A stretch of 22,733 bases of DNA. Source: an uncultured Deinococcales bacterium (GTDB lineage Bacteria > Deinococcota > Deinococci > Deinococcales > JAAFIG01). The first letter of the stretch is position 1, and each line of letters begins with the position of its first letter. The translations under genes and the position numbers were made by a program. The stretch spans positions 1-22,733 of the forward strand of contig CAXTTL010000056.1 in the NCBI GenBank assembly GCA_964247135.1, read 5' to 3'. This document shows positions 1 through 22,733 of the stretch, in pieces. The notes beneath the pieces were generated by a model, which saw only the letters and a list, made by a program, of their open reading frames with translations, was not told the DNA's origin and ran no database searches.

Positions 1-277
1 TTTTCTGGGCGAAGGCAGGGCTTGAAAAGCAGAGCAATGCCAAAAAAAACAGGATGAATCTCGAGAAACCATGATTGGGATTTTGCTTTGGGCTGGTGGG
101 CGGCAAGGGCAGGGCGCAGCTTCTTGATCCCAAAACGCACCTTCGGGCGGGATCGCTAGCAGCGTCCCTACATTCAACCGAAACAATTTCAGGAGCGACA
201 CGATTTAAGCCATTGTTCTCACGCGTTTGGGGTTTCTCGAGCATCATGTTGTGATGGTTTTGTTCGGTCAACTTCAT
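1..277 (-). CDS. Partial (runs off the window) exported protein downstream of lptF/G; possibly LptD/OstA-like
   Basis: Manual translation gives an open frame from ATG at 277 (3 nt after the upstream stop): MKLTEQNHH...GFSRFILFFLALLCFSSPAFAQK, ending in a signal-peptide-like segment with an AFA cleavage motif. The true start may be further downstream. The product is guessed from context only. Confidence 0.5.
   Translation of the reverse strand, partial: MKLTEQNHHNMMLEKPQTRENNGLNRVAPEIVSVECRDAASDPARRCVLGSRSCALPLPPTSPKQNPNHGFSRFILFFLALLCFSSPAFAQK
109..171. repeat. REP-like nested imperfect inverted repeat
   Basis: GCAGGGCGCAGCT (109-121) pairs with AGCAGCGTCCCTAC (158-171), GATCCC (126-131) pairs with GGGATC (149-154), and there is an inner C-TTCG-G loop. 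The minus strand begins GTAGGGAC. Confidence 0.5.
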
Positions 278-280
278 GCG

Positions 281-1435
281 TTAACGTCGCCGTGCCATTG
301 CGAGAAGGGCGACACCCGCTCCGGCGTAAAGCAGGTCGGGCGTCCAGGCGGCGAGCACGGCGGGAATCGCGCCGCTTTCGCCCATGACGTTAAAAACCGT
401 CCAGGTGGCGTAATAGAAAAATGTTAAAAACATCACGCCAACAAAGCCCAGGCTTTGATTGCTGCGCAGCGTGTAAAGCGACAAGGCAATGCCGAACAGG
501 GCAAACGCCACCGACGCGAGCGGTTTGGCAAATTTTTGGTTTAAGGCGGTCAGCTCGCCGTTGGTCCTAAACCCCTGGCTTTGATAACTTTTGATGCGCT
601 CGAGTAGCGTCGGCAAGGGCAGGTCAATCGGTTTTTGTGACAAATTCGCGCCCTGCTGCAAATCCTTGATTGGAATGACCGCCCTGGCAAAATGGGCAAT
701 CGTGACTGGGCGGGCGTCGCCGGAACGGTAGGTGATTCTCGAGCCGTTGGTCAGTTCGATTGCGCCCTCGTCAGGTAAAATCTTGCCGTTTGGGGCTTTC
801 ATGATTGACAGCGGCACTTGCCCTTCGGAGCCTTGCATGATTGTAATGTTCTCGAGGATTCCGCCGGCTTTCAAGCCGCCGTCGGGAATGTAAATCACTT
901 GATTTTGCGCGTCCTTAAAAAATTGCCCCCCGGTGAATGCGACCCTGGGGTTTGAGATGATGATGTCGCGCAAAACTCGGCTGGCGTTTTCGATGCCTCT
1001 GGGTTGCAGGGTTTCGGCGTTGATGAACGCCAGAAGCGCCACCACCGCACCAATCACCAGCACCGGCATGGTCAAGCGCGTCGGGGAGATGCCCGCCACC
1101 ACGGCGGCTTTGAGTTCCGAATCTTGGGTTAGCCTCGAAAGGCTCATGAGCACCGCAAACAACAGCGCTATCGGCAAGCCGAGCGAAAGCATCTCGGGCA
1201 ACCTGAACGCCAGATATTGTGCCACCAACAACGGGTTTGCGCCTTTGGCAAGAAACGCCCCGATGCGTTCAAACAATGCGCCCATCACCAGCGTCACAAT
1301 CACGATCAGCAAACCGCCAGCCAGCATCGGCAAGACCTCACCGACAATGTACATGTCGAGCAAGGTGATTCTGGGACGGGTACGCTCGAGTTTGGCAGGT
1401 GGCACGGTGGGTGTGCTGATGTGGGGCGTGTTCAT
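281..1435 (-). CDS. LptF/LptG family LPS export permease
   Basis: LDMYIVGEVL start, 3 TM segments, SRLTQDSELKA..AGISP motif, soluble middle domain, then 3 C-terminal TMs and AAWTPDLL. The ATG at 1435 overlaps the upstream stop (ATGA). Confidence 0.9.
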   Translation of the reverse strand: MNTPHISTPTVPPAKLERTRPRITLLDMYIVGEVLPMLAGGLLIVIVTLVMGALFERIGAFLAKGANPLLVAQYLAFRLPEMLSLGLPIALLFAVLMSLSRLTQDSELKAAVVAGISPTRLTMPVLVIGAVVALLAFINAETLQPRGIENASRVLRDIIISNPRVAFTGGQFFKDAQNQVIYIPDGGLKAGGILENITIMQGSEGQVPLSIMKAPNGKILPDEGAIELTNGSRITYRSGDARPVTIAHFARAVIPIKDLQQGANLSQKPIDLPLPTLLERIKSYQSQGFRTNGELTALNQKFAKPLASVAFALFGIALSLYTLRSNQSLGFVGVMFLTFFYYATWTVFNVMGESGAIPAVLAAWTPDLLYAGAGVALLAMARRR

Positions 1436-2493
1436 AGCAGCCTCCGCAAACCAAAGAGTGCGCCGATGCCAAAGATGGCGCTGGGCAACCAAGCCGCCAA
1501 CGGCGCGGCAATGGCTTGAGCCGAGGCGAGGTTAAAACCAATCTGCCACAAGCCCCAGTACACGGCAATCAAACCAATCGTTCCCGCAAAGCCCCAGGCG
1601 CGGTTGGAAATGGTCAAACCCAACGCCCCGCCGACAATTGCCATCAGCATGGCGGCAAGTGGATCGGAAAATCGCCTGTGAAGCTTAAATTGCGCATCGT
1701 AACGTTCGGACTGTGACAAGACTTTACTCGAGGCTCGAGCCATCAAATCTGGCAGCGGCAGGGCTTCGGGGGGTATCAGGTCGGGTTCGACGGGCAAGGT
1801 GAATGGGAAAACGCGGCGCACTTCGGGGTCGCTGACCGCCTGGGTTTCGGTATCGGTGGTGTGATAGACGTTGTACAACTCCCAGGTTTTGGCGTTCGCA
1901 TCCCAACGCCCTCGGGTGGCGGTGTAAATGCCCTCGGGCGTGGTGATCATCACCCCCGAAAGTTCGGCGAGTTGCTTGTTGTCCTTGTCTGGCAGAATTG
2001 AACCCGCATGATACAGAATGCTTTCGTCTTCGGAGGCATAGGATTTAAGCGCCTGAACCCTCGGCGGCTCTGAATGCCAAATCGCGTAATACGAGGTTTT
2101 AAAGCGCTGATCGGCAACCGGACGCCAGATGTTCTCGTTGACCCAGCTAAAACCCGTTGCCAGCAGACCCACGAATAAAATTGGGGCGAGCAAGGTGATT
2201 GGACGCACGCCGCTCGAGTAAACTGCTTTGAGTTCCGAATCTTTGGCGAGCCGTCCCAAACCGACCAGCACCGCAAACGCCAGACTGGGCGCAATCATGT
2301 ATGACAAAAAGAACGGCATTCTGTCTAAGAGTGCCCGAAACATGACATCGATTGAAGTGTGATAATTAATAAAAGACGCCGCCAGAAACGCGAAAAAGTC
2401 GATCATCAGCAGCATCAAAATTGTGACCAATCCGACCAAGTACAGTGGGACAAATTCGCGCAGAAGGTAGAAGGGAAGTCGGCGGGCTAACAT
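1432..2493 (-). CDS. LptF/LptG family LPS export permease
   Basis: YLLREF start, GRLAKDSELKAVYSSGV motif and AAWLP C-terminal motif; tandem with its paralogue. Confidence 0.9.
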   Translation of the reverse strand: MLARRLPFYLLREFVPLYLVGLVTILMLLMIDFFAFLAASFINYHTSIDVMFRALLDRMPFFLSYMIAPSLAFAVLVGLGRLAKDSELKAVYSSGVRPITLLAPILFVGLLATGFSWVNENIWRPVADQRFKTSYYAIWHSEPPRVQALKSYASEDESILYHAGSILPDKDNKQLAELSGVMITTPEGIYTATRGRWDANAKTWELYNVYHTTDTETQAVSDPEVRRVFPFTLPVEPDLIPPEALPLPDLMARASSKVLSQSERYDAQFKLHRRFSDPLAAMLMAIVGGALGLTISNRAWGFAGTIGLIAVYWGLWQIGFNLASAQAIAAPLAAWLPSAIFGIGALFGLRRLL

Positions 2494-2683
2494 GAGACTT
2501 TAAGCCTAACCAGCAACCATGAGAGGCACGCAAGGATTGAACCCAAAGCCATGAATTACAGTTGATACTTTGGCAGCTCGAGTAACCACTTTCAGAATCA
2601 AAAGTTTTACATGTGCAAGTGAATCTATCGCTCGAGATTCAAAACTTGAACCCCAGCGTAAATTTGATGCTCGAGATTTTACC

Positions 2684-3223
2684 CTAACGTGCGCCGAGCC
2701 AAGCGCCAGGGGATTGATCGGGTAATTTCTCGCTCTCGGTTTTTTGGGCGAAGATTTTAAACCCTCGAGCTTGATAATTTGGCAGCGCTTGCGAACCGTC
2801 CAAACTGCAAGTATGCACCCAAACTCGAGTTGGCTTGAGTTCCCAAGCCCTGGCAATACAGCGCGAAAGCAGCACGCCGCCGATGCCCAGACCGACAAAT
2901 TTGGGAATCAAACCAAAAATCGAAATCTCGACGCTGTCGCCTTGCCGCTCGAGTTCAAAATAACCCGCCACCGTGCCGGAAAGGTACGCCAGCCAAGTCT
3001 CGAGTTCGGGACGCTCGAGCCAGGTCTGCCACTGGGCATACGTCCATGACAGCCGATCAATCCAAAAGTAATCGCCGCCAACCGCCGTGTACAAAAAGCG
3101 GTTCAGTTCGGGCAAGGGTATTTCGGCGCGTTTGATCTCGAGGTTGGGAATGTGGCGAGATGATGGTTTGAACTCGCTTTGGTCGCGCATCTCGAGTGAA
3201 GTTGTGGTGACATTAACAAGCAT
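2684..3223 (-). CDS. GNAT family N-acetyltransferase
   Basis: FGLIPKFVGLGIGGVLL acetyl-CoA binding motif A and VWVHTCSLD..ALPNYQARGF motif B. Confidence 0.9.
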   Translation of the reverse strand: MLVNVTTTSLEMRDQSEFKPSSRHIPNLEIKRAEIPLPELNRFLYTAVGGDYFWIDRLSWTYAQWQTWLERPELETWLAYLSGTVAGYFELERQGDSVEISIFGLIPKFVGLGIGGVLLSRCIARAWELKPTRVWVHTCSLDGSQALPNYQARGFKIFAQKTESEKLPDQSPGAWLGAR

Positions 3224-3431
3224 GAAGAGCAGTTTAACGCGATTTGAGATTGCCCCAAGCAGTTTTGGATCGATGATGCTGTTTTTTACGGAAAATATTC
3301 GTGGATAAACCTTGGCACGATATTTAGTTTTTGACGAAATACGATACGTTGGTTATGCTGAAACTCGAGGCGAAAAGACGGACCAATGTTGGATTGTCTT
3401 AAGAACGAAATTTACCCTCAAGGAACAACCA

Positions 3432-3932
3432 ATGAACATTTCCCAAACCTACGATTACCTTGTTCGCGCACGTCGGGATTTGTGGAGCAGGCTCGAATCG
3501 GTACCCGATGAGGTTTTATCGCGCCCGCTGCTGAAAGGCGAACGATTTCGCTGCATCAAAGACCTGGTGTTTCACACGGCGGCGGTCGAGGACGGCTGGA
3601 TTCATTACACCATTTTGTGCGACGAGCCTGTCGAACATTCGTTTCCCGTCTTAAAAGGCACCCAGGACGCCTCGAGCATTGCGCTTGGGTTATTGCTGGA
3701 TTACTGGCGGGCTGTGGAGCAAAGCACCCTGACTTATCTTGGGGCGCTGACCGATGAAGATTTAAAACGGATTGTGGACGATTCGCCAACTGAACGTTAT
3801 GCGCTCGACGGTCTACTATGGCACATCATGATTCACGAAATACGGCACACCGCCCAGATTGCCGCGCTGCTGCGTACCCAGGGCATCAAGCCGCCGTCGC
3901 TTGACCTGCTGTTTTACTTGCCGACCCATTAA
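3432..3932 (+). CDS. DinB family protein
   Basis: IKDLVFHTAAVEDGW and WHIMIHEIRHTAQI supply the His triad. AAGGA RBS lies upstream of ATG 3432. Confidence 0.9.
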   Translation: MNISQTYDYLVRARRDLWSRLESVPDEVLSRPLLKGERFRCIKDLVFHTAAVEDGWIHYTILCDEPVEHSFPVLKGTQDASSIALGLLLDYWRAVEQSTLTYLGALTDEDLKRIVDDSPTERYALDGLLWHIMIHEIRHTAQIAALLRTQGIKPPSLDLLFYLPTH

Positions 3933-4057
3933 AGATTTCTCGAGAATATCTTCCCTCAGCCAAACTCAGACGGCTTTAAAGATTGCTGCTCGAGTCCTAT
4001 CATGGCATTGGGGTTTGAAGCATTTTGCGTCTGAGGATTTGCGTCGTAAAATAAACC

Positions 4058-4537
4058 ATGCAATTTGAAGGCAGTCCCAACATTAGCAATGAAACCGTCG
4101 AACAGTATTTTGGCGAGTACGGTTGGACCTTTGAAACCCTACAAGATGGCGTCTGGCGCACGGGTTTTCGCGGCGAGAACGGTTTTTTCACGATTTTTAT
4201 TCGCCTCACCGACGCCTGGTTGTACATGACCATCAGCCCCTTTGTGCCCGCCCCAACCGACGAAACCTGCAAAATCCAGGCTTTTGAAGCCATGCTGCAC
4301 TTCAACCGCGACATGAATTTGGCAAAATTCGTGCTCGACGAGGACGAGGACATCACCTTAACGGTTGAATTGCCGATTGCCGCGCTCTTGTACCCCGTGT
4401 TTGCCGAAGGCTTAACCGCCCTGGCATATTACGCCGACGATGTTCACGACGAAATGCTCGAGATCAGTACCGACAGGACAGCCATCTCGAGGTTTAAGGG
4501 TTTGGGTGGTGTGGTCGGCAAAACCATTCGCGCATAA
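4058..4537 (+). CDS. YbjN-like / T3SS-chaperone-fold protein
   Basis: 159 aa acidic protein with MLHFNRDMNLAKFVLDEDEDITLTVELP, a pattern typical of the YbjN family. Confidence 0.7.
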   Translation: MQFEGSPNISNETVEQYFGEYGWTFETLQDGVWRTGFRGENGFFTIFIRLTDAWLYMTISPFVPAPTDETCKIQAFEAMLHFNRDMNLAKFVLDEDEDITLTVELPIAALLYPVFAEGLTALAYYADDVHDEMLEISTDRTAISRFKGLGGVVGKTIRA

Positions 4538-4540
4538 GTT
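4531..4540 (+). repeat. Left direct repeat CGCATAAGTT flanking the ATPase/TOPRIM cassette
   Basis: Identical 10-mer at 6401-6410; AAACC also recurs 10 nt upstream of both copies. Confidence 0.6.
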
Positions 4541-4588
4541 CGATTTGCCTGTGAAGTTCAACTGAATGTTTTGTATTAGACTGCTGTC

Positions 4589-5815
4589 ATGCCCAGTCAT
4601 ATCCCATCCAACTCGTCAAGCGTATTTTTGCGGCGGGTTGAAATGAAAAACTATAAAAGTATTGGCTCGTGTGATGTTCGTTTGTCACAACCCTTGACCA
4701 TATTGGTTGGACCAAATGGGGCAGGGAAAAGCAATTTTCTTGACGGTCTTCGCTTCATTTCAGATGCGCTTGAAAGTGGATTAGACAATGCCCTTCAGGT
4801 GCGTGGCGGCATCAATGAAGTGCGTCGTCGTACAGGAGGACATCCCACTCACTTTTCAATTCGACTGGAGTTTGCCGTGCCAAATGGTGATGCCTTTTTT
4901 AGTTTTCGAGTTGGAGCACAACAAGGGGGTGGGTATACCATCCAAAAAGAGGAATGCCATATTTCTACGCGTGATCAGCCTCCCAAAGAGCATTTTTATG
5001 CTGTTGAAAATGGTTTTGTTCAAAAAAGCTCAATCAAAACACCACCTGTTGCTCTTAATGACCGTTTTTATCTGGTCAATATATCCGGTTTTCCTGAATT
5101 TCGTGCTGTCTATGATGCACTGTTGGGAATGAGATTTCATAATTTCAATCCAGAATTGATTAAAACACCACAAAGACCGAATCCAAAGGATTATCTCGAG
5201 CGAGATGGACATAATGTTGCAAGTGTTCTAGGCAATCTCGAGAAAAATTCTGAAGAAACGTTACAAAAAATATGGGAATTTTTAGAAAAAGTTGTACCTG
5301 GTGTTAAACGTGTTGAAAGGAAAGTCCATGGAAGTTACGAAGAACTTATATTTCGGCAATATGTTGCAGGACAAAAAGACCTTTGGCGATTTCCTGCAAT
5401 AAATATGTCCGACGGTACATTGCGAGTTCTAGGGATTTTAGTAGCATTATTTCAAGCTGCGGGCAGTAGTAAACCAGTGCCCTTGGTTGGAATTGAAGAA
5501 CCCGAAACTGCACTCAACCCTGGCGCAGCAGGTATTTTGCTTGATTCTTTGCGTGCTGCCAGCCAGAGTACCCAAGTTCTTGTTACGAGCCATAGTCCAG
5601 ACCTATTGGATGATAAAAATATTCATCCGGATTCAATTCTTGCTGTTATTGCCCACGAAGGGAATACACAAATTGGCGCAATAGATCAAGTTGGTCGGAC
5701 TGCCTTAAAAGATCATTTGTATACTGTTGGAGAACTGTTGCGTCAAGATATGATACGACCGATCATTCCTAAAAAACGTCAAATCACCCAAACGCAACAA
5801 TTATTTGAGGCGTGA
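4589..5815 (+). CDS. ABC/SMC-like AAA family ATPase (AAA_15/AAA_21 type)
   Basis: MKNYKSI N-terminus, Walker A GPNGAGKS, signature MSDGT, Walker B IEEPE and H-loop TSHS. Confidence 0.9.
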   Translation: MPSHIPSNSSSVFLRRVEMKNYKSIGSCDVRLSQPLTILVGPNGAGKSNFLDGLRFISDALESGLDNALQVRGGINEVRRRTGGHPTHFSIRLEFAVPNGDAFFSFRVGAQQGGGYTIQKEECHISTRDQPPKEHFYAVENGFVQKSSIKTPPVALNDRFYLVNISGFPEFRAVYDALLGMRFHNFNPELIKTPQRPNPKDYLERDGHNVASVLGNLEKNSEETLQKIWEFLEKVVPGVKRVERKVHGSYEELIFRQYVAGQKDLWRFPAINMSDGTLRVLGILVALFQAAGSSKPVPLVGIEEPETALNPGAAGILLDSLRAASQSTQVLVTSHSPDLLDDKNIHPDSILAVIAHEGNTQIGAIDQVGRTALKDHLYTVGELLRQDMIRPIIPKKRQITQTQQLFEA

Positions 5816-5819
5816 TTCG

Positions 5820-6407
5820 ATGTCCATGATTATTTCTGTGGTAGAAGGGTATGGTGAAGTAACAACTGTTCCTATATTGTTACGACGCATTGCAACCAGA
5901 CTGGAAATCCACAATTTCAAATTTCCCAAAGCCATGCGGATAACCAAGGGACGCTTAGTAAAGGATGAACTTGCACGTATTTTGAATCTAGCAAGTATTG
6001 AATTCCAAGCAGAAGGAATGAGTGGGGGAGTCCTGATCGTTCTTGATGCGGATGACGATTGTCCAGCAGATTTAGGAGTTCTTCTCCGTCAGAAAGCCCA
6101 AGAAGCTCGACCCGATATTCCTGTAGTAATTGCTGTTGCAAACAGAGAATTTGAAGCTTGGTATTTGGCTGGAATCCAGTCGTTGCAGGGAAAACATGGC
6201 TTACCTGATTTAATCACTCCACCAACGAACCCAGAAAACATTCGGAATGCCAAGGGTTGGTTGGGTCAACAAATGGGCAGTTACAGTCCAACAATTCATC
6301 AAGAAAAATTTGCTGCTGTACTTGATTTACAACTCGCTCGTCAATCTCAATCTTTTGCTCGATTTTATGATCGAGTGAGTCAACTGTTTCAAACCCTAAA
6401 CGCATAA
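5820..6407 (+). CDS. DUF4276-like TOPRIM-fold putative nuclease
   Basis: VVEGYGE and LDADDD TOPRIM-like acidic motifs and REFEAWYLA. It starts 4 nt after the ATPase stop, with a GAGG RBS. Confidence 0.75.
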   Translation: MSMIISVVEGYGEVTTVPILLRRIATRLEIHNFKFPKAMRITKGRLVKDELARILNLASIEFQAEGMSGGVLIVLDADDDCPADLGVLLRQKAQEARPDIPVVIAVANREFEAWYLAGIQSLQGKHGLPDLITPPTNPENIRNAKGWLGQQMGSYSPTIHQEKFAAVLDLQLARQSQSFARFYDRVSQLFQTLNA

Positions 6408-6410
6408 GTT
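6401..6410 (+). repeat. Right direct repeat CGCATAAGTT
   Basis: Identical to 4531-4540; both copies contain the TAA stop codon of the preceding gene. Confidence 0.6.
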
Positions 6411-6418
6411 TTATCGCG

Positions 6419-7789: not shown

Positions 7790-8463
7790 GCTGTCCTCAA
7801 ACGATAACCGATGCCAAACACCGTCTCGAGCAGCACGGGATTGCTCGGGTCAAGCTCGAGTTTTAGACGCAACTTGCGGATGTGAACGTCCACGGTGCGC
7901 TCAAAACTGTCCAAACCGCCCTCGAGTGCGAGCAGCAAGTCTTCGCGGCTGAAGACTTTGTTGGGCGATTGCATCAAACGCGTGATGATCGCGTACTCGG
8001 CGGGCGTCAAGCTGACCGCCTCACCGTTTCGGCGCAGCAAGTATTCGTCGGTATATAACTCGAGTTCGCCGACCCGCAAGACGCTCGGGCTTTTTTGCAA
8101 CGGTTCGCTGCGGCGCAACACGGCTTTGATTCGCGCAGAGAGTTCCTCGAGGTCAAAAGGTTTGGTGATGTAATCGTCTGCACCCAGCCCAAAACCTTCT
8201 AACCGATCATCTTTTTCGTGCTTGGCGGTCAGTAAAATCACGGGCGTTTGCGCCTCTCGCCTGAAGGTTTTTAAGAACGTGTAACCGTCCATTGTCGGCA
8301 TCATGACATCGAGCAAAATCAAATCTGGCTTTTCGTGGCGAGCCGTGTATAGCGCATTCAAACCGTTGTCGGCGATACAAACCCTGTAACCGTCCGCGCT
8401 CAAATATTCTTGCAGCATCCGCGTTAAACTCGCTTTGTCATCGATCACCAAAATGCTTTTCAT
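7786..8463 (-). CDS. OmpR/PhoB family response regulator
   Basis: Receiver (VIDD, LLDVMMP, KPF) and winged helix (RTVDVHIRKLR, TVFGIGY); overlaps the kinase start (ATGA). Confidence 0.95.
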   Translation of the reverse strand: MKSILVIDDKASLTRMLQEYLSADGYRVCIADNGLNALYTARHEKPDLILLDVMMPTMDGYTFLKTFRREAQTPVILLTAKHEKDDRLEGFGLGADDYITKPFDLEELSARIKAVLRRSEPLQKSPSVLRVGELELYTDEYLLRRNGEAVSLTPAEYAIITRLMQSPNKVFSREDLLLALEGGLDSFERTVDVHIRKLRLKLELDPSNPVLLETVFGIGYRLRTA

Positions 8464-9263
8464 ATCGGATGCACTTTTCCTGAAAGCACGGTCACACTGA
8501 TCGCGTTGTTAAAGTTTCGCAAGACCGTCATGCTGCGGGTAAATTCGGAATCGGATTCAAACTCGAGATTGTCAAATAAACCGTTCAAGTGCTGCGTAAA
8601 TTTCACGCGAATTGGGTCAGCACTGATGCCAACATGAACCACGCCACTCGAGTTAAACAACTTGTGAACGTCACCAAAGGCATTCTCGCTCGAGATTGAA
8701 AATGATTTTTTGATGCCATTTTTAGAAAAAGTGCCGCGCAAAAAAAGACTCTTTCCAAGTATGTTCACATTCAAATTTTTGCTGTGCGGCGTCGCTCGGG
8801 TTGCCACAAAATACCCCTGGCAGTAATTGGGTTCGTGCACGACTACCGCCTTAAAACCGGTGGCTCGAGGCTCGAGCAAGTTCTGGATTGTATTGGCTTG
8901 CAACGCCGCAGGGTCTTGCCCTTGGGTGTGACCCGCCAACGCGACGCCAGACACCACCTCTAGCCCCGCCAGCAGCGACTCGAGCCACGAATGGGTGTGC
9001 GGGCAGGACATCAACTGCAAGCCGTAAGCGTTGATCAAACCCTGCTCGAGCCTCACGCTGTAACCAAGATTGGTCTGAAATACCAAAGCCTTGCCATCAC
9101 GTTTTACGCCAGAAGTGTCCCACGCCAGCAAATAGTTTATTGCTCCACTCGAGATGGTTTTTGGACGCAAGAACTTATACGCGCCCAAAGCCACGGCTGG
9201 CACGAAATAGACCAGCACCAAAGCGAGCAAGATTTTTTTGATGACACGCGATTTTGGAGTCAT
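8460..9263 (-). CDS. Hypothetical membrane-anchored protein with Cys/His motifs
   Basis: N-terminal hydrophobic helix, SCPHTH, LAGHT and NYCQG; ATGA coupling to the response regulator. Confidence 0.75.
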   Translation of the reverse strand: MTPKSRVIKKILLALVLVYFVPAVALGAYKFLRPKTISSGAINYLLAWDTSGVKRDGKALVFQTNLGYSVRLEQGLINAYGLQLMSCPHTHSWLESLLAGLEVVSGVALAGHTQGQDPAALQANTIQNLLEPRATGFKAVVVHEPNYCQGYFVATRATPHSKNLNVNILGKSLFLRGTFSKNGIKKSFSISSENAFGDVHKLFNSSGVVHVGISADPIRVKFTQHLNGLFDNLEFESDSEFTRSMTVLRNFNNAISVTVLSGKVHPI

Positions 9264-14888: not shown

Positions 14889-14953
14889 ATGGATACAGTC
14901 GTTTGTAAAGTCATGCGCCAAACAAAGCGCGGCAAATCTCGAGCCAAACCCGA

Positions 14954-15277
14954 TTACTCATTCACCTCGAGCCGTTTGCCCTCCCAAACATCAATAAAAC
15001 TCGAGCCTGCCATCACTACGGCGCTGTGCGGCACACCCGCTGGAATGTTGTAATGCTCGCCAGTTTTCAGGACGTGCAGCACGCCGCCTATCGTCAGCTC
15101 CACCGTGCCTTCGATCACCACGCCCCACTGACCGGCGTGGCTGTGCTCAGGGACAAGAATGTCTTGTGTGGCATGAAAAAAACCGACTTGTCCCGACTTG
15201 CCCGTCAAAACGTTGGCGTTTAAACCGTCCCAGACTTCGACTTTGGTGAATTGACCGATCCAATCTGCGAATGCCAT
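14954..15277 (-). CDS. Cupin domain protein
   Basis: PEHSH..QWGVVIEG and IPAGVPHSA cupin motifs; AAAGGAG RBS. Confidence 0.9.
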   Translation of the reverse strand: MAFADWIGQFTKVEVWDGLNANVLTGKSGQVGFFHATQDILVPEHSHAGQWGVVIEGTVELTIGGVLHVLKTGEHYNIPAGVPHSAVVMAGSSFIDVWEGKRLEVNE

Positions 15278-15555
15278 GTTGACTCCTTTTGATGCTCGAG
15301 CATCTCGAATTTTAAGGGTTGAAGTTTAAACTGTGGTGTTCGTTAAAATGATGCCGACATGATTAAAGGTCAAGATTTCACATTCTACGGCTCGTGTCTG
15401 GCTCGAGCTTAAGCTTTTAAAATGTGAAGTATTATGCTTAAGGTTCTCATACGCTCATTTGAATGAGTGGCTTCTATGAGCCACATCAGGATTTTTTCAC
15501 GTTGATCGAAAGCTGCGAACGTAGCCTCCAGGAGCAGGTAAATTCGGAGGTTCTT

Positions 15556-17643
15556 ATGCAAAAACACGTTGTCAAGGCGCTCATCGTTACCGCTCTGGGA
15601 CTCGGCGTCCCCGCGATGGGGTTCACCATCGCCAAAATTGCTCAATCCCGTTTTCAGGACGTACCTGCCGGACATTGGGCGCAGGAAGCCGTGGATTACG
15701 TCACGGCAAAAGGTTTGATCACCGGTTTCCCCGACGGCACGTTCAAAGGGCAGCAAACCTTATCGCGTTATCAAGCCGCACTGATCTTTTACCGGTTGTT
15801 GCAATCTGGCGCCATGAACACCGTTGATGCCAACGGGCAAGCGGTCATCAACAAAGGCATTGACGATGTCAAAGTCGAACTGGACGGTTTAAAAACCCAA
15901 CTTGGGGCGCTGGAGACCACCAACACCAACCAAGATGGACGCCTCGGCACGCTCGAGGAACAACTCAAAGCCCTCTCAGCCCAACCAGCCGCCACCGCTG
16001 GCACAGACTTGGAGCCACGGGTCAAGTCGCTCGAGGATTTGCTGGCAACCCTCAACACCAAACTCGAGTCGCAACAGGCGGCTGGAAGTGTCGATCCTGC
16101 GCTTCAAGCCAAAGTGACCGACCTCGAGACCCAACTGGCAACCTTGCGCACCGACCTGACGGCGGCTGCACCAGACGCCCAACAATCGGCTCGCATTGCC
16201 GCACTTGAAGCCGACATCGCCACCTTAAAAACCCAGGCTGGCACCGCGCCAACCACCGACCAAGCGACAAAACTCGCCGAACTCGAAACCAGCCTCTCCG
16301 AATTGCAAGACCAAGTTTCTGGACTTGACAACACCGAACTCGCAGACCGTGTGAGTGCGCTCGAGGATCAAGCCAAAGCCGTGGCTGCCCCAGTGGCAGT
16401 CGCCGATCTAACCCCTCAAGTCACCGCGCTCGAGGCTCGAATCGCCAAACTCGAGGCGCAACCCGCCCCAACCGGCACAGACCAAAGCGCCCAAGTCACG
16501 CAATTGCAAAGCGACTTGAAAGCCTTACAAGACCAAGTTCAAGGCATTTCCAGCGCCAACCCAGCCAGCGCCGCCGCAGCCGATCAGGGCGCTCGCCTTG
16601 GGACACTCGAGACGCAACTCAAAGACCTGAGTGCGCGGGTCGATGCGATCAAACCTGCCGGTACAGACCCAGCGCTTCTTGACCAGATCAAAGCCCAAGA
16701 AACCAAACTTGCCGATTTGCAAGCCAAAGTCGATGCGCTCAAACCAGGCACGGTTGATCCAGCCCTGTCTGACCAGATCAAAGCCCAGGACGCCAAACTT
16801 GCCGATCTGCAAGCCAAAGTTGACGGTCTTAAACCAGGGGCGACAGACCCAGCGCTTCTTGACCAGATCAAAGCCCAAGACGCCAAACTTGCCGATTTGC
16901 AAGCCAAGGTTGACGGCATCAAACCAGGCGCAACCGACCCTGCGGTGCTCGATCAACTCAAAACCCAAGACACAACGATTAAAGCACAAGAAGAACGCAT
17001 TGCCGCCCTCGAGGGTCAAGTCAAGGACCTTGCCGCCAGCGTGACCGAACTTTCAGACAAAATTGCGGCACAACCAACCACCCCAACGACAACAACTCCG
17101 ACCACACCAGTCGAGACCACGCCGACCACACCCACCACACCCACCACACCAGTTGACACCACACCAGTGGTCACGACCCCAACCACCGATGTTACTCCCG
17201 TGCCTGTTGTCACCCCACCCAACTTTTATGTCGGCATCGGTGGACGTTACGGGATTCTTCCATCTGGTGCGGCAAACGACAACATTGCCATCAGCGTCAT
17301 GATCGGCTTCAAGCGTTTTATTGGACCGATTGGCTTTCGCATCTCGGGCGATTACCTGGCATTTGCCACCGCCCCAAACTCGACCAACCCAAGCCTGCAA
17401 GCCAAGTACTTCAGCGTCAACCCAGCACTGGTGCTTGACCTTGGAACGTTCTACGTCGGCGCCGGCGTGGGTGGCGATTTCGGATTGCAAAACAGCTTGT
17501 TCATCAACGGCATCGTCGGTCTGAACATCGCTTTCAGCAACAACTTTGGTTTGTTTGTCGAAGCTGACCCGCGTTATTACCTCAATCAAACCACGGACAA
17601 ACTGCGTTTTGGCATTCGCGCCGGTCTTAAATTCGGGTTCTAA
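15556..17643 (+). CDS. S-layer homology (SLH) protein with long coiled coil and C-terminal beta-barrel (SlpA/OmpM-like)
   Basis: GGAGG RBS before ATG 15556, signal peptide, SLH FQDVPAGHWAQEAV..GLITGFPDGTFKG..SRYQ, heptad repeats, PT linker and amphipathic strands ending in Phe. Confidence 0.88.
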   Translation: MQKHVVKALIVTALGLGVPAMGFTIAKIAQSRFQDVPAGHWAQEAVDYVTAKGLITGFPDGTFKGQQTLSRYQAALIFYRLLQSGAMNTVDANGQAVINKGIDDVKVELDGLKTQLGALETTNTNQDGRLGTLEEQLKALSAQPAATAGTDLEPRVKSLEDLLATLNTKLESQQAAGSVDPALQAKVTDLETQLATLRTDLTAAAPDAQQSARIAALEADIATLKTQAGTAPTTDQATKLAELETSLSELQDQVSGLDNTELADRVSALEDQAKAVAAPVAVADLTPQVTALEARIAKLEAQPAPTGTDQSAQVTQLQSDLKALQDQVQGISSANPASAAAADQGARLGTLETQLKDLSARVDAIKPAGTDPALLDQIKAQETKLADLQAKVDALKPGTVDPALSDQIKAQDAKLADLQAKVDGLKPGATDPALLDQIKAQDAKLADLQAKVDGIKPGATDPAVLDQLKTQDTTIKAQEERIAALEGQVKDLAASVTELSDKIAAQPTTPTTTTPTTPVETTPTTPTTPTTPVDTTPVVTTPTTDVTPVPVVTPPNFYVGIGGRYGILPSGAANDNIAISVMIGFKRFIGPIGFRISGDYLAFATAPNSTNPSLQAKYFSVNPALVLDLGTFYVGAGVGGDFGLQNSLFINGIVGLNIAFSNNFGLFVEADPRYYLNQTTDKLRFGIRAGLKFGF
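16651..16971 (+). repeat. 90-bp (30-aa) tandem coding repeat, about 3.5 copies
   Basis: Units start at 16651, 16741, 16831 and 16921: KP(A/G)..DPAL.DQIKAQ..KLADLQAKVD. Confidence 0.95.
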
Positions 17644-17656
17644 ACCAATACTTTTT

Positions 17657-17690
17657 CAAAAGACGTGCCATTACGGCGCGTCTTTTTTGT
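17657..17690 (+). terminator. Rho-independent terminator
   Basis: AAAAGACGTGCC-atta-CGGCGCGTCTTTTTT hairpin with T tract after the S-layer gene. Confidence 0.85.
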
Positions 17691-17737
17691 TACTCGAGGT
17701 ACATCAAAACCTGAAGCCACGGGGTTAAGCTGCGACC

Positions 17738-18448
17738 ATGAACAATAAAACAGCATTGGTCACTGGCGGCTCCAAAGGCATCGGTTTGGCAATCGCGGAG
17801 GCGCTGATCGCCAAGGGTTACAACGTGGTGATTACCGCCCGCAACGAAGCCGAAGTGCTCGAGGCGGCACACAACCTGAACGCTTTCGCCCCAGGTCGCG
17901 CCGTGGGGATTCAAGCCGACGCTCGAGATTACGCCGCCCAGGAAGCCGCCGTCGCGCAAGCCGTCAATTCGTTCGGTGGTTTGGATGTGCTGGTCGCCAA
18001 TGCTGGCGTCGGGGTTTTCAAACCCGTGCAGGACTTGACGCTCGAGGATTGGGATTCGGTGATCGACACCAACCTGACGGGCGTGTTTTACAGCGTCAAA
18101 GCCAGCATCCCCGAACTCGAGAAGCGCAAGGGTTATGTGCTGACGATCTCGAGCTTGGCTGGTAAAAACCCGTTTGAGTTTGGTGCGGCTTATAATGCCA
18201 GCAAGTTTGGCTTGAACGGTTTTTCCGAAGCAATCATGATGGATTTGCGCAAACTGGGCATCAAAGTCAGTTACATCATGCCTGGGTCGGTGGCGACGTA
18301 CTTTAACGGTCACACGCCCGACGAGAAAGACGCCTGGAAAATTCAACCCGAAGACATTGCCCAGCTTGTGCTCGACCTGCTCGAGATGAATCCGCGCACC
18401 TTGCCGAGCCGTGTCGAGGTGCGTCCAAGTCAACCTCCGCGCAAGTAA
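17738..18448 (+). CDS. SDR family oxidoreductase
   Basis: TGGSKGIG, ANAG and catalytic YNASK. Confidence 0.95.
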   Translation: MNNKTALVTGGSKGIGLAIAEALIAKGYNVVITARNEAEVLEAAHNLNAFAPGRAVGIQADARDYAAQEAAVAQAVNSFGGLDVLVANAGVGVFKPVQDLTLEDWDSVIDTNLTGVFYSVKASIPELEKRKGYVLTISSLAGKNPFEFGAAYNASKFGLNGFSEAIMMDLRKLGIKVSYIMPGSVATYFNGHTPDEKDAWKIQPEDIAQLVLDLLEMNPRTLPSRVEVRPSQPPRK

Positions 18449-18450
18449 AA

Positions 18451-19890
18451 TCACTTCCGAATTGCGTAAGGTTTGCCTTCGAGCGAGAGGCTCATGCCGT
18501 TTGATGTTGGTTTGAACTCGAGTTTGAGGTTTAAAAAACGCCAGTCGAATTCTCCAGCGTCAACAACTTGAAAAACGTTTTGTTTGATCGCCTCGAGTTT
18601 CAGAATCGCATCGGATTTTTGCAGCTCGAGTTGATTTTTGGCGTTGACGCGAACTTCAATCTTGCCCTCGCCCGAGGTGTAAATCCCTGTGAACGGCTCG
18701 GGTTTTGTGGTGGTTTTTGCAACTCGAGCCGAACTTGGAACGGGCAGAATCGCGCTTTCATCGCCACGCAAAAAGTCCAGCAAGCCCAAGGCAAGCTCGA
18801 GATCAAGCCCTTCAACCTCGAGATTCCATAAGATTGCCACGCCCAGTTTTTGATCTGGCGCAAGCAAAAACATTGAACCCATTCTTCCAACCGTACCGTT
18901 GTGCGCGAGCAAATTCAAACCCCTGGACTCAAACACGCGCCAACCGAAACCGTATTTGATCTCGTGCTTCAGGTTGTAGGTGGCAATTCCAAAATGGTAA
19001 TCCACCTGCGGTTTTTGCGTCTCGAGCAAAGATTTTGGGCTGATGATTTTTCGCCCATGAAACTGCCCTTGATTGAGTTCCATGATGAGGTAGTTGCCGA
19101 TGTCTCGAGCGCTGGAAGATGTCAAAGAACCCGCCGGAACGCCCAAGCGCCCCAATTGCCGTGGCGTTGCCTTGAACGAACCTCTTGGCGTTCCACGGTA
19201 GCCCTGCGCCAAGCCCAATTCGCTGGCAGTTTGCGGGTCGAGGGTGGTGCGTTGCATCTCGAGCGGCTTGAAGAGATTTTCGTTCAAGTACGTTTCAAAC
19301 GTTACGCCTGAAACTTTTTGCACGATCAAACCGAGCACCGCATAACCGAAATTGGAATACTTGGTTTTTGTTCCAGGCGCGAACATCAATTTGGAATGCT
19401 GAAAACTTCTCACCCAGCGCTCGAGCGCCAAATCGTCCAGCGCCGCGTCGTGAGGAATGGATTCGTCCGAGAGTCCAGACGTGTGCGTTAAGCATTGCCG
19501 CAACGTAATTTTATCCGAGAGCTTGTTGCTGTCGCCCGTCTTAAACCACGGCAAATAATGCACCACGGTTTGATCCAACTCGAGTTTACCAGCCTCTACC
19601 AACTGCATGATTGCCAATGCCGTCATGCTTTTGGTGGTTGACCCAATCTCGAGCAGTGTGGCATCGGTCATGGGTGTTTTGGTTTTGATGTTCGCCAAGC
19701 CGTAACCGTGGCTGTAAACGACAGCATCGTTTTGCACCATCACAATAGAAATCCCTGGGACACCCGCCAAAACGCGGCGTTCTTCGATAAAACGGTTGAT
19801 GCGCTCGAGTGGCAAAGTTGGCGTGGTGGCATTTGCCGAAATGCTCGAGGTGAGTGTGAGGATTGCGGCAAACAGAACACGGCTTTTCAT
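18451..19890 (-). CDS. Secreted serine hydrolase (beta-lactamase/class C-like family)
   Basis: Signal peptide, SxxK (STTK), LTHTSG, YSN and HNG motifs. Confidence 0.92.
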   Translation of the reverse strand: MKSRVLFAAILTLTSSISANATTPTLPLERINRFIEERRVLAGVPGISIVMVQNDAVVYSHGYGLANIKTKTPMTDATLLEIGSTTKSMTALAIMQLVEAGKLELDQTVVHYLPWFKTGDSNKLSDKITLRQCLTHTSGLSDESIPHDAALDDLALERWVRSFQHSKLMFAPGTKTKYSNFGYAVLGLIVQKVSGVTFETYLNENLFKPLEMQRTTLDPQTASELGLAQGYRGTPRGSFKATPRQLGRLGVPAGSLTSSSARDIGNYLIMELNQGQFHGRKIISPKSLLETQKPQVDYHFGIATYNLKHEIKYGFGWRVFESRGLNLLAHNGTVGRMGSMFLLAPDQKLGVAILWNLEVEGLDLELALGLLDFLRGDESAILPVPSSARVAKTTTKPEPFTGIYTSGEGKIEVRVNAKNQLELQKSDAILKLEAIKQNVFQVVDAGEFDWRFLNLKLEFKPTSNGMSLSLEGKPYAIRK

Positions 19891-19935
19891 TGAGGCTTAA
19901 TCTACTCGAGTTTTCAAAAGACTTGACAAAACGCC

Positions 19936-19967
19936 TACCTAGGTTAACTGTATAGTTAACCTAGGTA
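19936..19967. promoter_or_regulatory. 32-bp palindromic operator, likely a PadR site
   Basis: TACCTAGGTTAACT-gtat-AGTTAACCTAGGTA between the divergent hydrolase and padR genes; TTGACA at 19923-19928. Confidence 0.75.
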
Positions 19968-19979
19968 CTAAGGAGCATC

Positions 19980-20318
19980 ATGAATCAAAACCTTGACCCC
20001 AACCTCTTAAAAGGCAACCTCGACTTAATCCTCCTCACCATTCTCGAGGAAGGGGAGATGTACGGACTCGAGATCATCCAAGAAGCCCAAATCCGCACAA
20101 ATGGCTATTTTGATTTCAAAGAAGGCAGCCTTTATCCAGCCCTGCACCGACTGACGCAGGCGGGCTGGCTGACCAGCGAATTCCGCGAAAGTGACCTGGG
20201 CGGACCAAGGCGCAAATACTACACGCTGACCGAAAAAGGACAGCACACGCTGGCGAAAAAACGCAACGACTGGAAACAATTCTCGAGCGCCATCGATCAG
20301 CTTCGGGGTGCAAAATGA
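19980..20318 (+). CDS. PadR family transcriptional regulator
   Basis: LKGNLDLILL, MYGLEI, GSLYPALHRL and RRKYYTLT; AAGGAG RBS. Confidence 0.95.
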   Translation: MNQNLDPNLLKGNLDLILLTILEEGEMYGLEIIQEAQIRTNGYFDFKEGSLYPALHRLTQAGWLTSEFRESDLGGPRRKYYTLTEKGQHTLAKKRNDWKQFSSAIDQLRGAK

Positions 20319-20914
20319 CCAGCCTCGAGCGATACTTAAACAATGCCACACGCGATATCTGGGGAAAACGCAAACTCGAGATTCGTGAAGAACTCGAGCA
20401 GCATATTCTCGAGCGCAGCAAAAAATACGAACTTGAAGGTTTTTCTCGAGAAATGGCGATACTTCAAGTCCTCGAGCAACTGGGAAACCCGCAAAAGCTT
20501 TCGTTCGGTTTCTGGGAGGTGTACATGACGATGCACAAGAATTTGATGATGGGTTCTTTGGTAGCAGTATTGATGATTGGCATCGCAACCTGGCAGATGA
20601 CTTTGCCACGAAACCTTACATTTTCTTGTTCCAATTCGGATCATTCAAAATGGATTGAAGGAACGACCAGCGCAACGTGGTTTGGTGTTGTTGGTGTGGC
20701 TCGAGAACTCGAGAAACTCGATTTTACGGATTACACGTTGCAACAATTCAAGGACACCATGATGGATTCAGAAAACGGTATGACCATTCATTCTGAAGCC
20801 AAATCTGGGCAGTTTAAAGCCAGCAATCAAAAATACATTACCTTGCAGAATCCAAAGCTCACGGTTCAACCCTCGACAACATCAACATCAGACGAACTTC
20901 ATTGTGTCTGGTGA
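20315..20914 (+). CDS. Permease-prefix-domain (HAAS-like) single-pass membrane protein
   Basis: LERYL...EIREELEQHI...LGNPQKL N-terminal domain followed by one TM; ATGA coupling to padR. Confidence 0.75.
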   Translation: MTSLERYLNNATRDIWGKRKLEIREELEQHILERSKKYELEGFSREMAILQVLEQLGNPQKLSFGFWEVYMTMHKNLMMGSLVAVLMIGIATWQMTLPRNLTFSCSNSDHSKWIEGTTSATWFGVVGVARELEKLDFTDYTLQQFKDTMMDSENGMTIHSEAKSGQFKASNQKYITLQNPKLTVQPSTTSTSDELHCVW

Positions 20915-20937
20915 GATGCCCCAAAACCTCGAGCAAC

Positions 20938-20968
20938 AAAAAACACCCCAAAACGGGGTGTTTTCTTT
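20938..20968. terminator. Bidirectional terminator
   Basis: AAAAAACACCCC-aaaac-GGGGTGTTTTCTTT between the convergent CDS and tRNA-Gly. Confidence 0.85.
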
Positions 20969-21042
20969 TGGAGCGGCTATTCGGATTCGAACCGAAACGA
21001 AGACCTTGGAAGGGTCACATGCTACCGTTACATCATAGCCGC
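20969..21042 (-). tRNA. tRNA-Gly(TCC)
   Basis: GCGGCTA/TAGCCGC acceptor stem, CTTCCAA anticodon loop, TTCGAAT T-loop and encoded CCA. Confidence 0.95.
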
Positions 21043-21093
21043 AGCACAACTATTGTACTACAAACTCGAGTTTATGGGATGCTCGAGAAAAAT

Positions 21094-21171
21094 TGGTCGG
21101 GGCAGCAAGATTCGAACTTGCGACCCCCTGGTCCCAAACCAGGTGCGCTAGCCAGGCTGCGCTATGCCCCG
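21094..21171 (-). tRNA. tRNA-Pro(TGG)
   Basis: CGGGGCA/TGCCCCG acceptor stem, TTTGGGA anticodon loop, TTCGAAT and CCA. Confidence 0.95.
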
Positions 21172-21203
21172 AACCGTCGAACGCTCTCGCGTCTCGAGGG
21201 GAG

Positions 21204-21254
21204 AGTATAACGGCAATTGCTGATCTTGACAAGCCCTGTTTGGGGCGATACACT
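21204..21254. promoter_or_regulatory. Divergent sigma-70-type promoters with overlapping -35 elements
   Basis: Plus strand: TTGACA(21226-31)-17 nt-TACACT(21249-54). Minus strand: TTGTCA(21232-27)-17 nt-TATACT(21209-04). Confidence 0.8.
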
Positions 21255-21280
21255 TCTTCACGCTGCGAGAGCAGTGCTTG

Positions 21281-21356
<76 letters not shown>

Positions 21357-21359
21357 AAT

Positions 21360-21398
21360 AAAAAACACGAGATTCTTAACCAGAGTCTCGTGTTTTTT
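21360..21398 (+). terminator. Rho-independent terminator after tRNA-Lys
   Basis: AAAAAACACGAGATTCT...AGAGTCTCGTGTTTTTT. Confidence 0.85.
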
Positions 21399-21525
21399 GC
21401 AACATTCAGACTGGCTCGAGTCAATCCCTTTCGCTTGGTGAATTTGTGCCGAGTTCAGATCATCCTTTTCATGCTCTTGTATGCGAAGGTTGCCCCAAAG
21501 AGGTTGCTCGAGATTGGAGTTGTTG

Positions 21526-22221
21526 ATGGATTTTTTGACCTTACTTAAAGGTGGCGGACCGGTCGCAGTACTGTTGCTGCTGGTGTCGGTTTATGCCGCT
21601 TTTGTCTTCTTTTACCGCTATCAGGTTTTTGCCAAAGCCACCACCAGTCCAGTCAAGTTGTATGCGCAAATCAAAGCGGATTTGCTGGCTGCCAATGTGC
21701 GCTTGGCGCTGGCGGATGTGGCTCGAGAGGATTCTCCCGCCGCCAAGGTTTTAACTGCCGGTTTGGAACGCGTTCAATACGGTGCTGATGCGGTACAGGC
21801 TGGGGTGCAGCAAGCCATGTTGCTCGAGGAGGAACGTTTTGGGCGAGGTTTGGGGACGTTGGCAACCATTGCGCAGGTTGCGCCGATGCTGGGTTTGTTG
21901 GGCACGGTCTTTGGCATGATTCGGGCGTTCACCGTGTTTTCGCAGGTCAGTCAGCCCTCGCCCAATCAATTGGCTGGCGGCATCAGCGAGGCGCTGGTTT
22001 CGACTGCGGCTGGTTTGATCGTGGCGGTCTTGTCGCACGTTGGTCACAGTTTTTTGACCAGGCGTTATGATTCGCTTTTAAACGCTTTGGATCACAGCAA
22101 AGAATTTTTGACCACCACCCTGATCGAGGCAGGTTTGTACACAACAGATTCCTATCAAAGTGCCAAAATGGAATCGCTCGAGCCTCCAAAAACCCTGCAA
22201 CCCAGCCTTTCGAGGGGATGA
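21526..22221 (+). CDS. exbB: MotA/TolQ/ExbB proton channel protein
   Basis: APMLGLLGTVFGMIRAF and LAGGISEALVSTAAGLIVA; GGAG RBS before ATG 21526. Confidence 0.88.
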   Translation: MDFLTLLKGGGPVAVLLLLVSVYAAFVFFYRYQVFAKATTSPVKLYAQIKADLLAANVRLALADVAREDSPAAKVLTAGLERVQYGADAVQAGVQQAMLLEEERFGRGLGTLATIAQVAPMLGLLGTVFGMIRAFTVFSQVSQPSPNQLAGGISEALVSTAAGLIVAVLSHVGHSFLTRRYDSLLNALDHSKEFLTTTLIEAGLYTTDSYQSAKMESLEPPKTLQPSLSRG

Positions 22222-22625
22222 ACATGCGTCGCCGCCGATCACGCCCAGCCGCCCCAATATTTACCTTTGCGCCGATGGTGGACATTGTGCTGCTGCTCTT
22301 GATTTTTTTCATGACCACCACCAGTTTTTTAAAGTCCGAACGAGGCTTGAAAGTGGATTTGCCAAGTGCCAGCCAAGCCTCGAGCAGCCAACCTTCGCCC
22401 GAGGTGATTTTGACCAAAGACGGGCAAATTTTGTTTGAAAAACGCGTGAACTTGACGCCCTTGCAACTCGAGCAAGCCCTCAGAACTGTCTTTAAGGGTG
22501 CGCCGAGCGCCGTGTCTTTGCGTGCCGACCGTGACGCCCGTCATGGGCGGGTGGTCGAGGTGATGGATGCCATCAAACGCGCTGGGGCGACGCGCTTGGC
22601 GGTGGCGGTGCAGGAGCGACCATGA
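22218..22625 (+). CDS. exbD: ExbD/TolR biopolymer transport protein
   Basis: APMVDIVLLLLIFFM, VDLPSA and LRADRDARHGRVVEVMD. Confidence 0.9.
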   Translation: MNMRRRRSRPAAPIFTFAPMVDIVLLLLIFFMTTTSFLKSERGLKVDLPSASQASSSQPSPEVILTKDGQILFEKRVNLTPLQLEQALRTVFKGAPSAVSLRADRDARHGRVVEVMDAIKRAGATRLAVAVQERP

Positions 22626-22733
22626 CCAATGTGTGGCAAAGTTTGGACTTGTCCGATCCGATCAAGCGCAAAGCCGTGTTTGCGAGTGTTTTGTTGCATG
22701 GTTTGGTGCTGGCTGGCATGGGTTTTTATTTGT
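22622..22733 (+). CDS. Partial TonB/TolA-like energy transducer
   Basis: ATG 22622 overlaps the exbD stop. MTNVWQSLDLSDPIKRKAVFASVLLHGLVLAGMGFYL has the S-x3-H TM pattern typical of TonB anchors. Confidence 0.65.
   Translation, partial: MTNVWQSLDLSDPIKRKAVFASVLLHGLVLAGMGFYL

Follow-up and report, generated by a model that had tools for sequence, protein, structure and literature searches.

Contig C56 of an uncultured Deinococcales bacterium, a stretch of 22,733 bases analysed here over its whole length (the window), is strewn with copies of one palindromic hexamer, CTCGAG, and raises the question of what has placed them there and what keeps them. The initial annotation of the window had likened the word to HIP1 (GCGATCGC), the highly iterated palindrome (HIP) of cyanobacteria. 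Analysis of the genome to which the contig belongs (G000; 5.09 Mb in 386 contigs, 52.7% guanine plus cytosine, GC) and of its relatives upheld this comparison: the word is abundant genome-wide, in every reading frame as well as in non-coding DNA, beyond what codon usage accounts for, and it is conserved and family-wide. CTCGAG is a palindrome of the HIP kind: at the level of the DNA, a small fixation bias towards each exact copy makes and keeps it.

The copies in the window were located by exact matching and assigned to the frames of 23 open reading frames (ORFs). They comprise the following features:

1-22733, no strand assigned: the CTCGAG set, 141 copies (exact match, shuffles and ORF frames).

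1727-1739, no strand assigned: CTCGAG pair at spacing 7 (1727/1734; exact match), a spacing found at 0.38 times random genome-wide.

8864-8876, no strand assigned: CTCGAG pair at spacing 7 (8864/8871; exact match), likewise at 0.38 times random genome-wide.

20700-20713, no strand assigned: CTCGAG pair at spacing 8 (20700/20708; exact match), a spacing found at 0.05 times random genome-wide.

This corresponds to one copy per 161 bases. In 100 dinucleotide-preserving shuffles of the window, the mean was 3.73 copies and the maximum 9, and none of the 100 reached 141. The zero-order expectation, scaled from the genome, is about 6.1, in agreement with the earlier hand count of about 140 copies against about 6 expected, and the roughly 25-fold excess derived from that count matches the 24.8-fold excess of the whole genome. 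As the initial annotation had also stated, the copies occupy coding and intergenic DNA and all three frames: 127 of the 141 lie in ORFs (77 as CTC GAG, 19 as xCT CGA Gxx and 31 as xxC TCG AGx), and the 1,680 bases left outside them contain the other 14, at 8.3 per kb. The three tandem pairs that it had named are real, but the word does not favour tandem arrangement: close pairs are depleted genome-wide.

The enrichment extends over the entire genome. G000 contains 33,925 copies of CTCGAG, one per 150 bases (~6.7 per kb), making it the commonest hexamer by a lead of more than two-fold, and ranks 2 to 7 are taken by its own one-base shifts. Its ratio of observed to expected counts is 24.8 for a zero-order model and 35.2, 14.4, 3.45 and 1.24 for Markov models of order 1, 2, 3 and 4, respectively. 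The expectations of order 3 and 4 are self-referential, because most of the CTCGA and TCGAG pentamers sit inside CTCGAG; at orders 1 and 2 the word ranks first of all 4,096 hexamers. Each of the 297 contigs longer than 5 kb carries at least 2.56 copies per kb (median 6.77, expected 0.27), which rules out an enrichment local to this contig. Among 1,473 five-kb windows of the genome, the poorest still has 8 copies, and the counts are over-dispersed (mean 33.2, standard deviation 7.9). Low-GC DNA is poorer in sites, with 4.9 per kb in windows below 45% GC versus 6.8 per kb at 52-55% GC.

Such an excess could be a by-product of composition or coding, arising from codon or dipeptide usage, or it could be carried by a dispersed repeat or mobile element containing the word. 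CTC GAG is indeed an easy Leu-Glu codon pair, 63% of the genic sites are in that frame, and high-GC relatives hold 1.7-2.9 copies of CTCGAG per kb too. We therefore controlled for codon and dipeptide usage, as the initial annotation had recommended, using our own crude ORF calls (3,939 ORFs, 79% of G000). The called genes contain 26,721 copies at 6.62 per kb, distributed over the three frames as 16,773, 3,854 and 6,094, and the rest of the genome contains 6.79 per kb, so that the density outside genes is equal or higher. Shuffling synonymous codons within each gene, with the protein and the codon usage of the gene kept, left only 3,669-3,778 copies in five runs; the observed number is still 7.2 times higher. 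Shuffling codon order left 1,522-1,608 copies in three runs. The reverse word, GAGCTC, which encodes Glu-Leu, does not occur in G000 at all. Nor is the word part of a repeat family, because the commonest 10-mer around the sites occurs only 478 times; this and the weak flanking sequences ruled out a dispersed repeat or mobile element. Together with the excess in 19 assemblies, one of them closed, these observations refute an artefact or a repeat, an explanation to which we attach next to no probability.

The same control revealed how far the pressure reaches into the proteins. Leu-Glu pairs are written CTCGAG in 16,773 of 21,602 cases (77.6%), whereas CTC makes up 15% of the leucine codons before other residues and GAG 33% of the glutamate codons after other residues. 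Leu-Glu is moreover the most over-used dipeptide, at 2.37 times expectation, compared with 1.01 for Glu-Leu and 1.63 for Ser-Ser. Since the excess survives the synonymous shuffle and is accompanied by this Leu-Glu bias, the pressure has altered codon choice and even amino-acid sequence. The fixation bias operates both between genes and in every reading frame, restrained by coding constraint alone. Along genes the density is flat. With the limits of crude gene calls, it reaches a peak within 50 bases past stop codons, at 11.0 per kb, and short intergenic gaps carry 7.6, 9.1 and 10.3 copies per kb when divergent, tandem and convergent, respectively.

What is favoured is the full hexamer. In G000 the remaining words of the forms NTCGAN, CNCGNG and CTNNAG occur at 0.04-1.8 times expectation, and CTCGAG alone is enriched. 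Its 18 one-base neighbours have ~1,245 copies each on average, 27 times fewer than CTCGAG, and lie at 0.08-1.73 times expectation; transition neighbours are the highest, as expected of decay products. A fixation bias near ln 27, or about 3 in scaled units of selection or conversion, would account for the 27-fold ratio; it is modest at each site but acts everywhere. The flanks are weakly informative, with G at -1 in 39% of sites, C at +1 in 38%, and A at -3 and T at +3 in 37%. We also considered an extended palindrome or hairpin and rejected it, as the octamer GCTCGAGC accounts for 12.5% of the sites in G000 compared with 14.9% expected from independent flanks.

To follow the fate of individual sites, we used 400 kb of the congener G005, of which 319.6 kb aligned to G000 at 86% identity. 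CTCGAG sites were conserved in 82.5% of cases, compared with 45.9% for all hexamers, placing the word first among the 1,682 hexamers with at least 150 occurrences. Conservation was high both in called genes (80.2% versus 45.3%) and outside them (74.1% versus 41.5%). Per-base identity reached 0.93-0.95 inside the sites and 0.79-0.89 in the flanks, and third codon positions were identical in 89.9% of cases inside sites and in 71.8% outside. One-base variants of the word were not conserved, at 12-44% against a background of 46%. Turnover is ongoing, with 1,667 sites common to both genomes, 435 confined to G000 and 274 confined to G005. The single-base differences between sites, almost all of them transitions, were spread evenly over the position pairs 1/6, 2/5 and 3/4 (122, 148 and 125, respectively). 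A site confined to G005 lay within 100 bases of one confined to G000 in 23.7% of cases compared with 17.4% (z 3.5), a weak signal of compensatory turnover that regional differences in rate could also cause.

The spacing of the sites bears on the possibility, raised in the initial annotation as a chromosome-organising site, that CTCGAG is a selected structural site, binding or phasing an abundant nucleoid or chromosome-organising protein, with selection keeping coverage dense and even. Gaps between sites are indeed more even than random, with a coefficient of variation of 0.96. Relative to random, gaps below 10 bases occur at 0.11 times, those of 10-25 bases at 0.72 times, those of 50-200 bases at 1.2-1.27 times and those of 400-800 bases at 0.71 times. 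At the shortest distances, pairs at spacing 7, 8 and 9 are found at 0.38, 0.05 and 0.51 times random, and spacing 6 is never seen, because it would create GAGCTC. Conservation inside and outside genes and the weak indication that a lost site is made good close by would also suit a structural role, and selection together with periodicity has been argued for HIP1 (Xu et al., PMC5861425, as far as the accessible part of that paper goes). Against it, we found no helical or other short period up to 400 bases except the 3-base period of coding DNA, the counts per 5 kb are over-dispersed, and no candidate protein was found. A strict need for an exact hexamer at 34,000 places would also be unusual among nucleoid proteins. 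We thus consider a structural site improbable.

We next examined how widely the word is distributed, a comparison across Deinococcota that the initial annotation had called for. Among the 40 nearest genomes, 18 belong to the same family (five genera, including one closed genome, G011), and all 18 carry 12,028-35,442 copies, or ~4.3-6.8 per kb; the closed genome has 23,515. The fixation bias is hence old enough to span the whole family. For the other families the figures are totals and densities: six genomes of genus g7 among the 40 have 128-942 copies, and the other families range from 0.6 to 2.9 per kb. The hexamer type also occurs in G253, a genome of 3.5 Mb labelled as another family, which has 24,536 copies. 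Although G197 carries the same genus label and has only 683 copies, the two could not serve as a within-genus contrast. Their DNA is only 66-71% identical, and no spectrum of gains could be obtained from the pair because G253 is no closer to G197 than to G000.

Other Deinococcales families bear an octamer dialect of the word, GCTCGAGC. When 301 genomes of the phylum were scanned, this octamer had 1,420-4,225 copies in the family of G000, at most 199 in all 100 genomes of g7 and at most 56 in all 31 genomes of genus g9. One of the 301, G265, carries an unpublished flag, and none of the conclusions depends on it. It reached 500-5,616 copies in many genera of family f2 and in g13, g18 and g19 of family f5, where the reversed control word was often very rare. 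The share of CTCGAG sites that lie within the octamer was 84% in G027 (2,645 of 3,131), 53% in G249, 33% in both G300 and G220, 13.6% in G253 and 12.5% in G000. In a sample of G027, the octamer was present at 69 of 87 CTCGAG sites, 50 times expectation, and the bare hexamer was not enriched.

The abundance of CTCGAG stands out in a genome otherwise depleted of palindromes. In G000, 32 of the 64 palindromic hexamers fall below 0.15 times expectation, as do 35 of 64 in the sample of G005. The rarest words in G000 are GAGCTC (0 copies), GGGCCC (1), CGGCCG (3), AGGCCT (4), CGTACG (5) and GGATCC (7); all four GRGCYC words have at most 6 copies, and the tetramers GGCC and CTAG lie at 0.02 and 0.07 times expectation. 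This purge fits heavy and changing restriction-modification pressure, and G000 has ten or eleven methylase genes. The avoidance of GAGCTC may be due to a C5-type system that targets GAGCTC or GRGCYC. Within the family, this word is most frequent in G008, G010 and G015 (568, 161 and 114 copies) and has 0-25 copies in the rest; G008 is also the sole genome of five tested that is without a C5 methylase.

We also searched viral contigs for three copies of CTCGAG in ~70 bases and obtained at least 120 loci; most among the matches listed are contigs high in GC in which GAGCTC is also frequent. Only one of the matches listed, L205, shows the signature of the host clade, with many CTCGAG and no GAGCTC. 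It is an IMG/VR contig of 9.7 kb labelled viral (GC 64%) with 57 copies (5.9 per kb). Only one of its nine ORFs had a PHROG match, a weak one, so that the contig is uninformative about phages.

One part of the window departs from the pattern, and in it we identified the following feature:

4589-6407, plus strand: candidate defence pair HEC-01A and HEC-01B (PADLOC; E 1.2e-150 for HEC-01A, an AAA_21 ATPase, and 2.1e-62 for HEC-01B).

Only 2 copies of CTCGAG fall in these 1,819 bases (1.1 per kb), and the GC content is 42-43%. No counterpart was found at the same place in five congeners. The HEC-01 pair is a recently acquired defence island, and the fixation bias is weaker in such recently acquired DNA.

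The initial annotation had suggested a methylase-coupled repair bias as one possible source of the excess. This corresponds to the model of Elhai for HIPs, in which a methylase would mark CTCGAG and a repair system reading the mark would resolve mismatches towards it. Several observations point in this direction. CTCGAG is the palindrome of XhoI, and XhoI-type systems and orphan relatives of their methylase are known within the same taxonomic order. In two genomes of sister families, G021 and G033, R.XhoI adjoins a PF01555 methylase. G027, G022 and G038 carry orthologues of this XhoI-linked methylase, 62-67% identical, with no R.XhoI found; G027 is the clearest carrier of the octamer. In the available portions of the literature, HIP1 and alternate HIPs are described as accompanying cognate methylases (PMC4390886), an orphan CTCGAG methylase is known from Nocardia (PMC4752239), and CTCGAG is listed as a methylated motif in hot-spring genomes (bioRxiv 10.64898/2026.06.24.734251). 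MutS paralogues are present.

The gene content of the family does not bear this model out. The negatives that follow refer to the genomes searched, most of which are incomplete metagenome-assembled genomes (MAGs). R.XhoI (PF04555) was found in none of the 19 genomes of the family, where the enrichment is strongest, and Vsr in none of the 19 either; a MutH-like nuclease was found in just 2 of 18 relatives, beside Dam-like genes. As a side observation, R.XhoI is a broken gene in G031. A Vsr-type repair signature, with a sink at one position, was likewise rejected, since the counts of one-base neighbours are flat.

The methylase-like genes of G000 comprise two of C5 type, four or five of PF01555 type, one HsdM-like, three large gamma-type and one of the Dam family. 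Those of PF01555 type carry SPPY or SPPF motifs, and two of them are contig-end pieces that may be one gene. The initial annotation had proposed a search for a methyltransferase specific for CTCGAG or TCGA; this yielded no methylase common to all genomes of the family, and none of the ten or eleven genes of G000 had a counterpart in all members. The best match of G000 to the XhoI-linked methylases is only 26-28% identical, with no close relative. PF01555 was not found in G015 or in the closed genome G011, in spite of the many CTCGAG copies of the latter, and PF00145 was not found in G008, one of five genomes tested. Two large methylase-like genes, on C192 and C21, have a patchy distribution, with their top matches in another family, and gamma-type matches vary from genome to genome.

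The Dam-family gene and the ORF downstream of it lie on contig C320 (1064-2994, minus strand). The gene encodes a DPPY methylase of 277 residues and overlaps this ORF, which has 370 residues and no assigned family and is possibly its nuclease partner. The methylase gene occurs in 6 of 18 relatives and is 84% identical in G011, which belongs to another genus, 93% in G003 and 76-78% in the other three congeners that carry it. As these identities do not track relatedness, they suggest a mobile restriction-modification unit. In G022 and G038, both of genus g9, the orphan methylase is present and CTCGAG is not hyper-abundant; these two genomes have ~2,000 copies of the hexamer, and 5 and 10 copies of GCTCGAGC. 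Finally, the one-base deviations are even over the positions, unlike those of HIP1. Different enzymes in these incomplete MAGs could have one common target, and neither the target specificity of a methylase nor the state of methylation can be read from sequence. Taking both sides into account, we regard a methylation-coupled repair ratchet as unlikely.

As the engine of the fixation bias we tentatively propose, as a possibility that falls short of being probable, a molecular drive coupled to recombination or uptake, of the kind now proposed for HIP1. A sequence-specific factor would favour DNA bearing CTCGAG in uptake, survival or recombination during natural transformation among kin; alleles gaining the word would then spread, and alleles losing it would be replaced. 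An uptake signal was among the readings offered in the initial annotation. Methylation may or may not take part in such a drive. Thermus and Deinococcus are naturally transformable, and the uptake sequences of other bacteria are thought to build up in this way, with gain alleles spreading and loss alleles being replaced. These are the uptake signal sequences of Pasteurellaceae (Haemophilus) and the DNA uptake sequences of Neisseriaceae (Neisseria), asymmetric words of 9-12 bases that occur about once per kb and whose receptor is known or suspected. CTCGAG resembles them in its genome-wide excess in both orientations, in its presence in coding DNA with effects on peptides, in being richer just past genes, evenly spaced and poor in foreign islands, in having dialects, and in being explicable by drive.

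Several points weigh against this proposal. CTCGAG is a palindromic hexamer at ~7 per kb, unlike the uptake sequences at ~1 per kb. A palindromic hexamer is also the typical target of a dimeric enzyme of the restriction-modification type, which favours the methylation-coupled alternative, and one such word per 150 bases would be a poor means of distinguishing kin DNA from foreign DNA. No candidate receptor for CTCGAG was found. The core transformation genes ComEC and DprA were found in all five genomes tested, but this says little, because the same families match in 10 and 11 of 14 control genomes. The signal of compensatory turnover is weak and confounded by regional rate, and site conservation is explained as well by selection or by biased repair as by drive. 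The fixation bias is linked to uptake or recombination by analogy.

The proposed drive for CTCGAG draws on HIP1, for which the published accounts are cited here from the parts of their texts that were available. Like HIP1 and the alternate HIPs, CTCGAG is a short palindrome containing GC and is strongly over-represented, 15-300 times for HIP1 and 25 times here (PMC4390886, PMC5861425). Both are found in all frames and in non-coding DNA, are conserved between genomes beyond the conservation of codons, and are lineage-wide, with alternate words or lengths in sub-lineages; in both cases the genomes are otherwise strongly depleted of palindromes. HIP1 has been argued to be periodic along the chromosome over tens of kb (Xu, Lawrence and Durand 2018, PMC5861425), has been reported to raise transformation and has been proposed as an uptake signal; in PMC13756078, the presence of orthogroups was compared with HIP1 under phylogenetic correction. 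CTCGAG differs in being another word, a hexamer, in another phylum and several times denser, and in that no conserved cognate orphan methyltransferase was found with it in these mostly incomplete MAGs. Its one-base variants are not conserved, unlike those of HIP1 (Xu et al.), and its deviations are without the bias towards outer positions described for HIP1 (Elhai 2015).

Two further systems offer partial parallels. The Dcm/Vsr very-short-patch repair of Escherichia coli raises CCWGG and lowers words containing CTAG. It resembles the present case as a repair bias on a methylated palindrome that shifts word frequencies genome-wide, but its effect is small and confined to one position, in contrast to the 25-fold excess of CTCGAG, the similar behaviour of its six positions and the lack of Vsr in the 19 genomes. 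Restriction-modification systems of the XhoI type share the recognition word and occur in sister families. A resident system normally leads to avoidance of its site, whereas CTCGAG is the commonest hexamer of a genome in whose family no XhoI-type nuclease was found.

We found no published description that links CTCGAG to iteration, over-representation or palindromes, no paper on HIP-like words in Deinococcus or Thermus, and nothing on CTCGAG in the literature on Deinococcota beyond the hot-spring methylome preprint cited above, itself available in part. The accessible text of Elhai 2015 contains no mention of CTCGAG, Deinococcus or Thermus. The hyper-abundance of CTCGAG is thus apparently an unpublished counterpart of cyanobacterial HIP1. 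Also new are the octamer dialect in other Deinococcales families, the near-complete purge of half of the other palindromic hexamers and the depletion of close tandem pairs.

Apart from the sites and the defence island, the window contains the following features:

15463-17643, plus strand: a protein of 726 residues, with an SLH domain at the N terminus and long coiled-coil-like matches after it (domain matches), probably an S-layer or envelope tether protein.

About 8141-8208, 8283-8332, 20010-20166 and 21092-21173, no strand given: short stretches with 70-88% matches in many contigs of G000 and congeners, with the appearance of small dispersed repeats or of segments of conserved domains.

The region 16001-18000 shows a strong strand skew (GC skew -0.15, AT skew +0.19).

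The role and origin of HIP1 have been an open question for thirty years, so far within one phylum, and CTCGAG would provide a second, independent and denser system. Since no conserved methylase is evident with it, methyl-directed repair, a drive by uptake or recombination, and chromosome structure make different, testable predictions, and Deinococcota, some cultured members of which are easily transformed, offer both a hexamer and an octamer dialect. On the practical side, CTCGAG dominates the k-mer signatures used in the binning of these MAGs, and XhoI is predicted to cut the DNA of G000 about every 150 bases and SacI never. The 2.4-fold over-use of Leu-Glu shows how far a pressure at the level of DNA can reach into proteins. 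In a broader view, somewhat doubtful as a whole, HIPs would be a convergent bacterial device and not a cyanobacterial peculiarity tied to an orphan methylase. Deinococcales would have a family of words of their own, CTCGAG with the octamer dialect GCTCGAGC, spread by a recombination or uptake drive as a watermark of kin DNA and strong enough to have altered the proteome at thousands of Leu-Glu positions.

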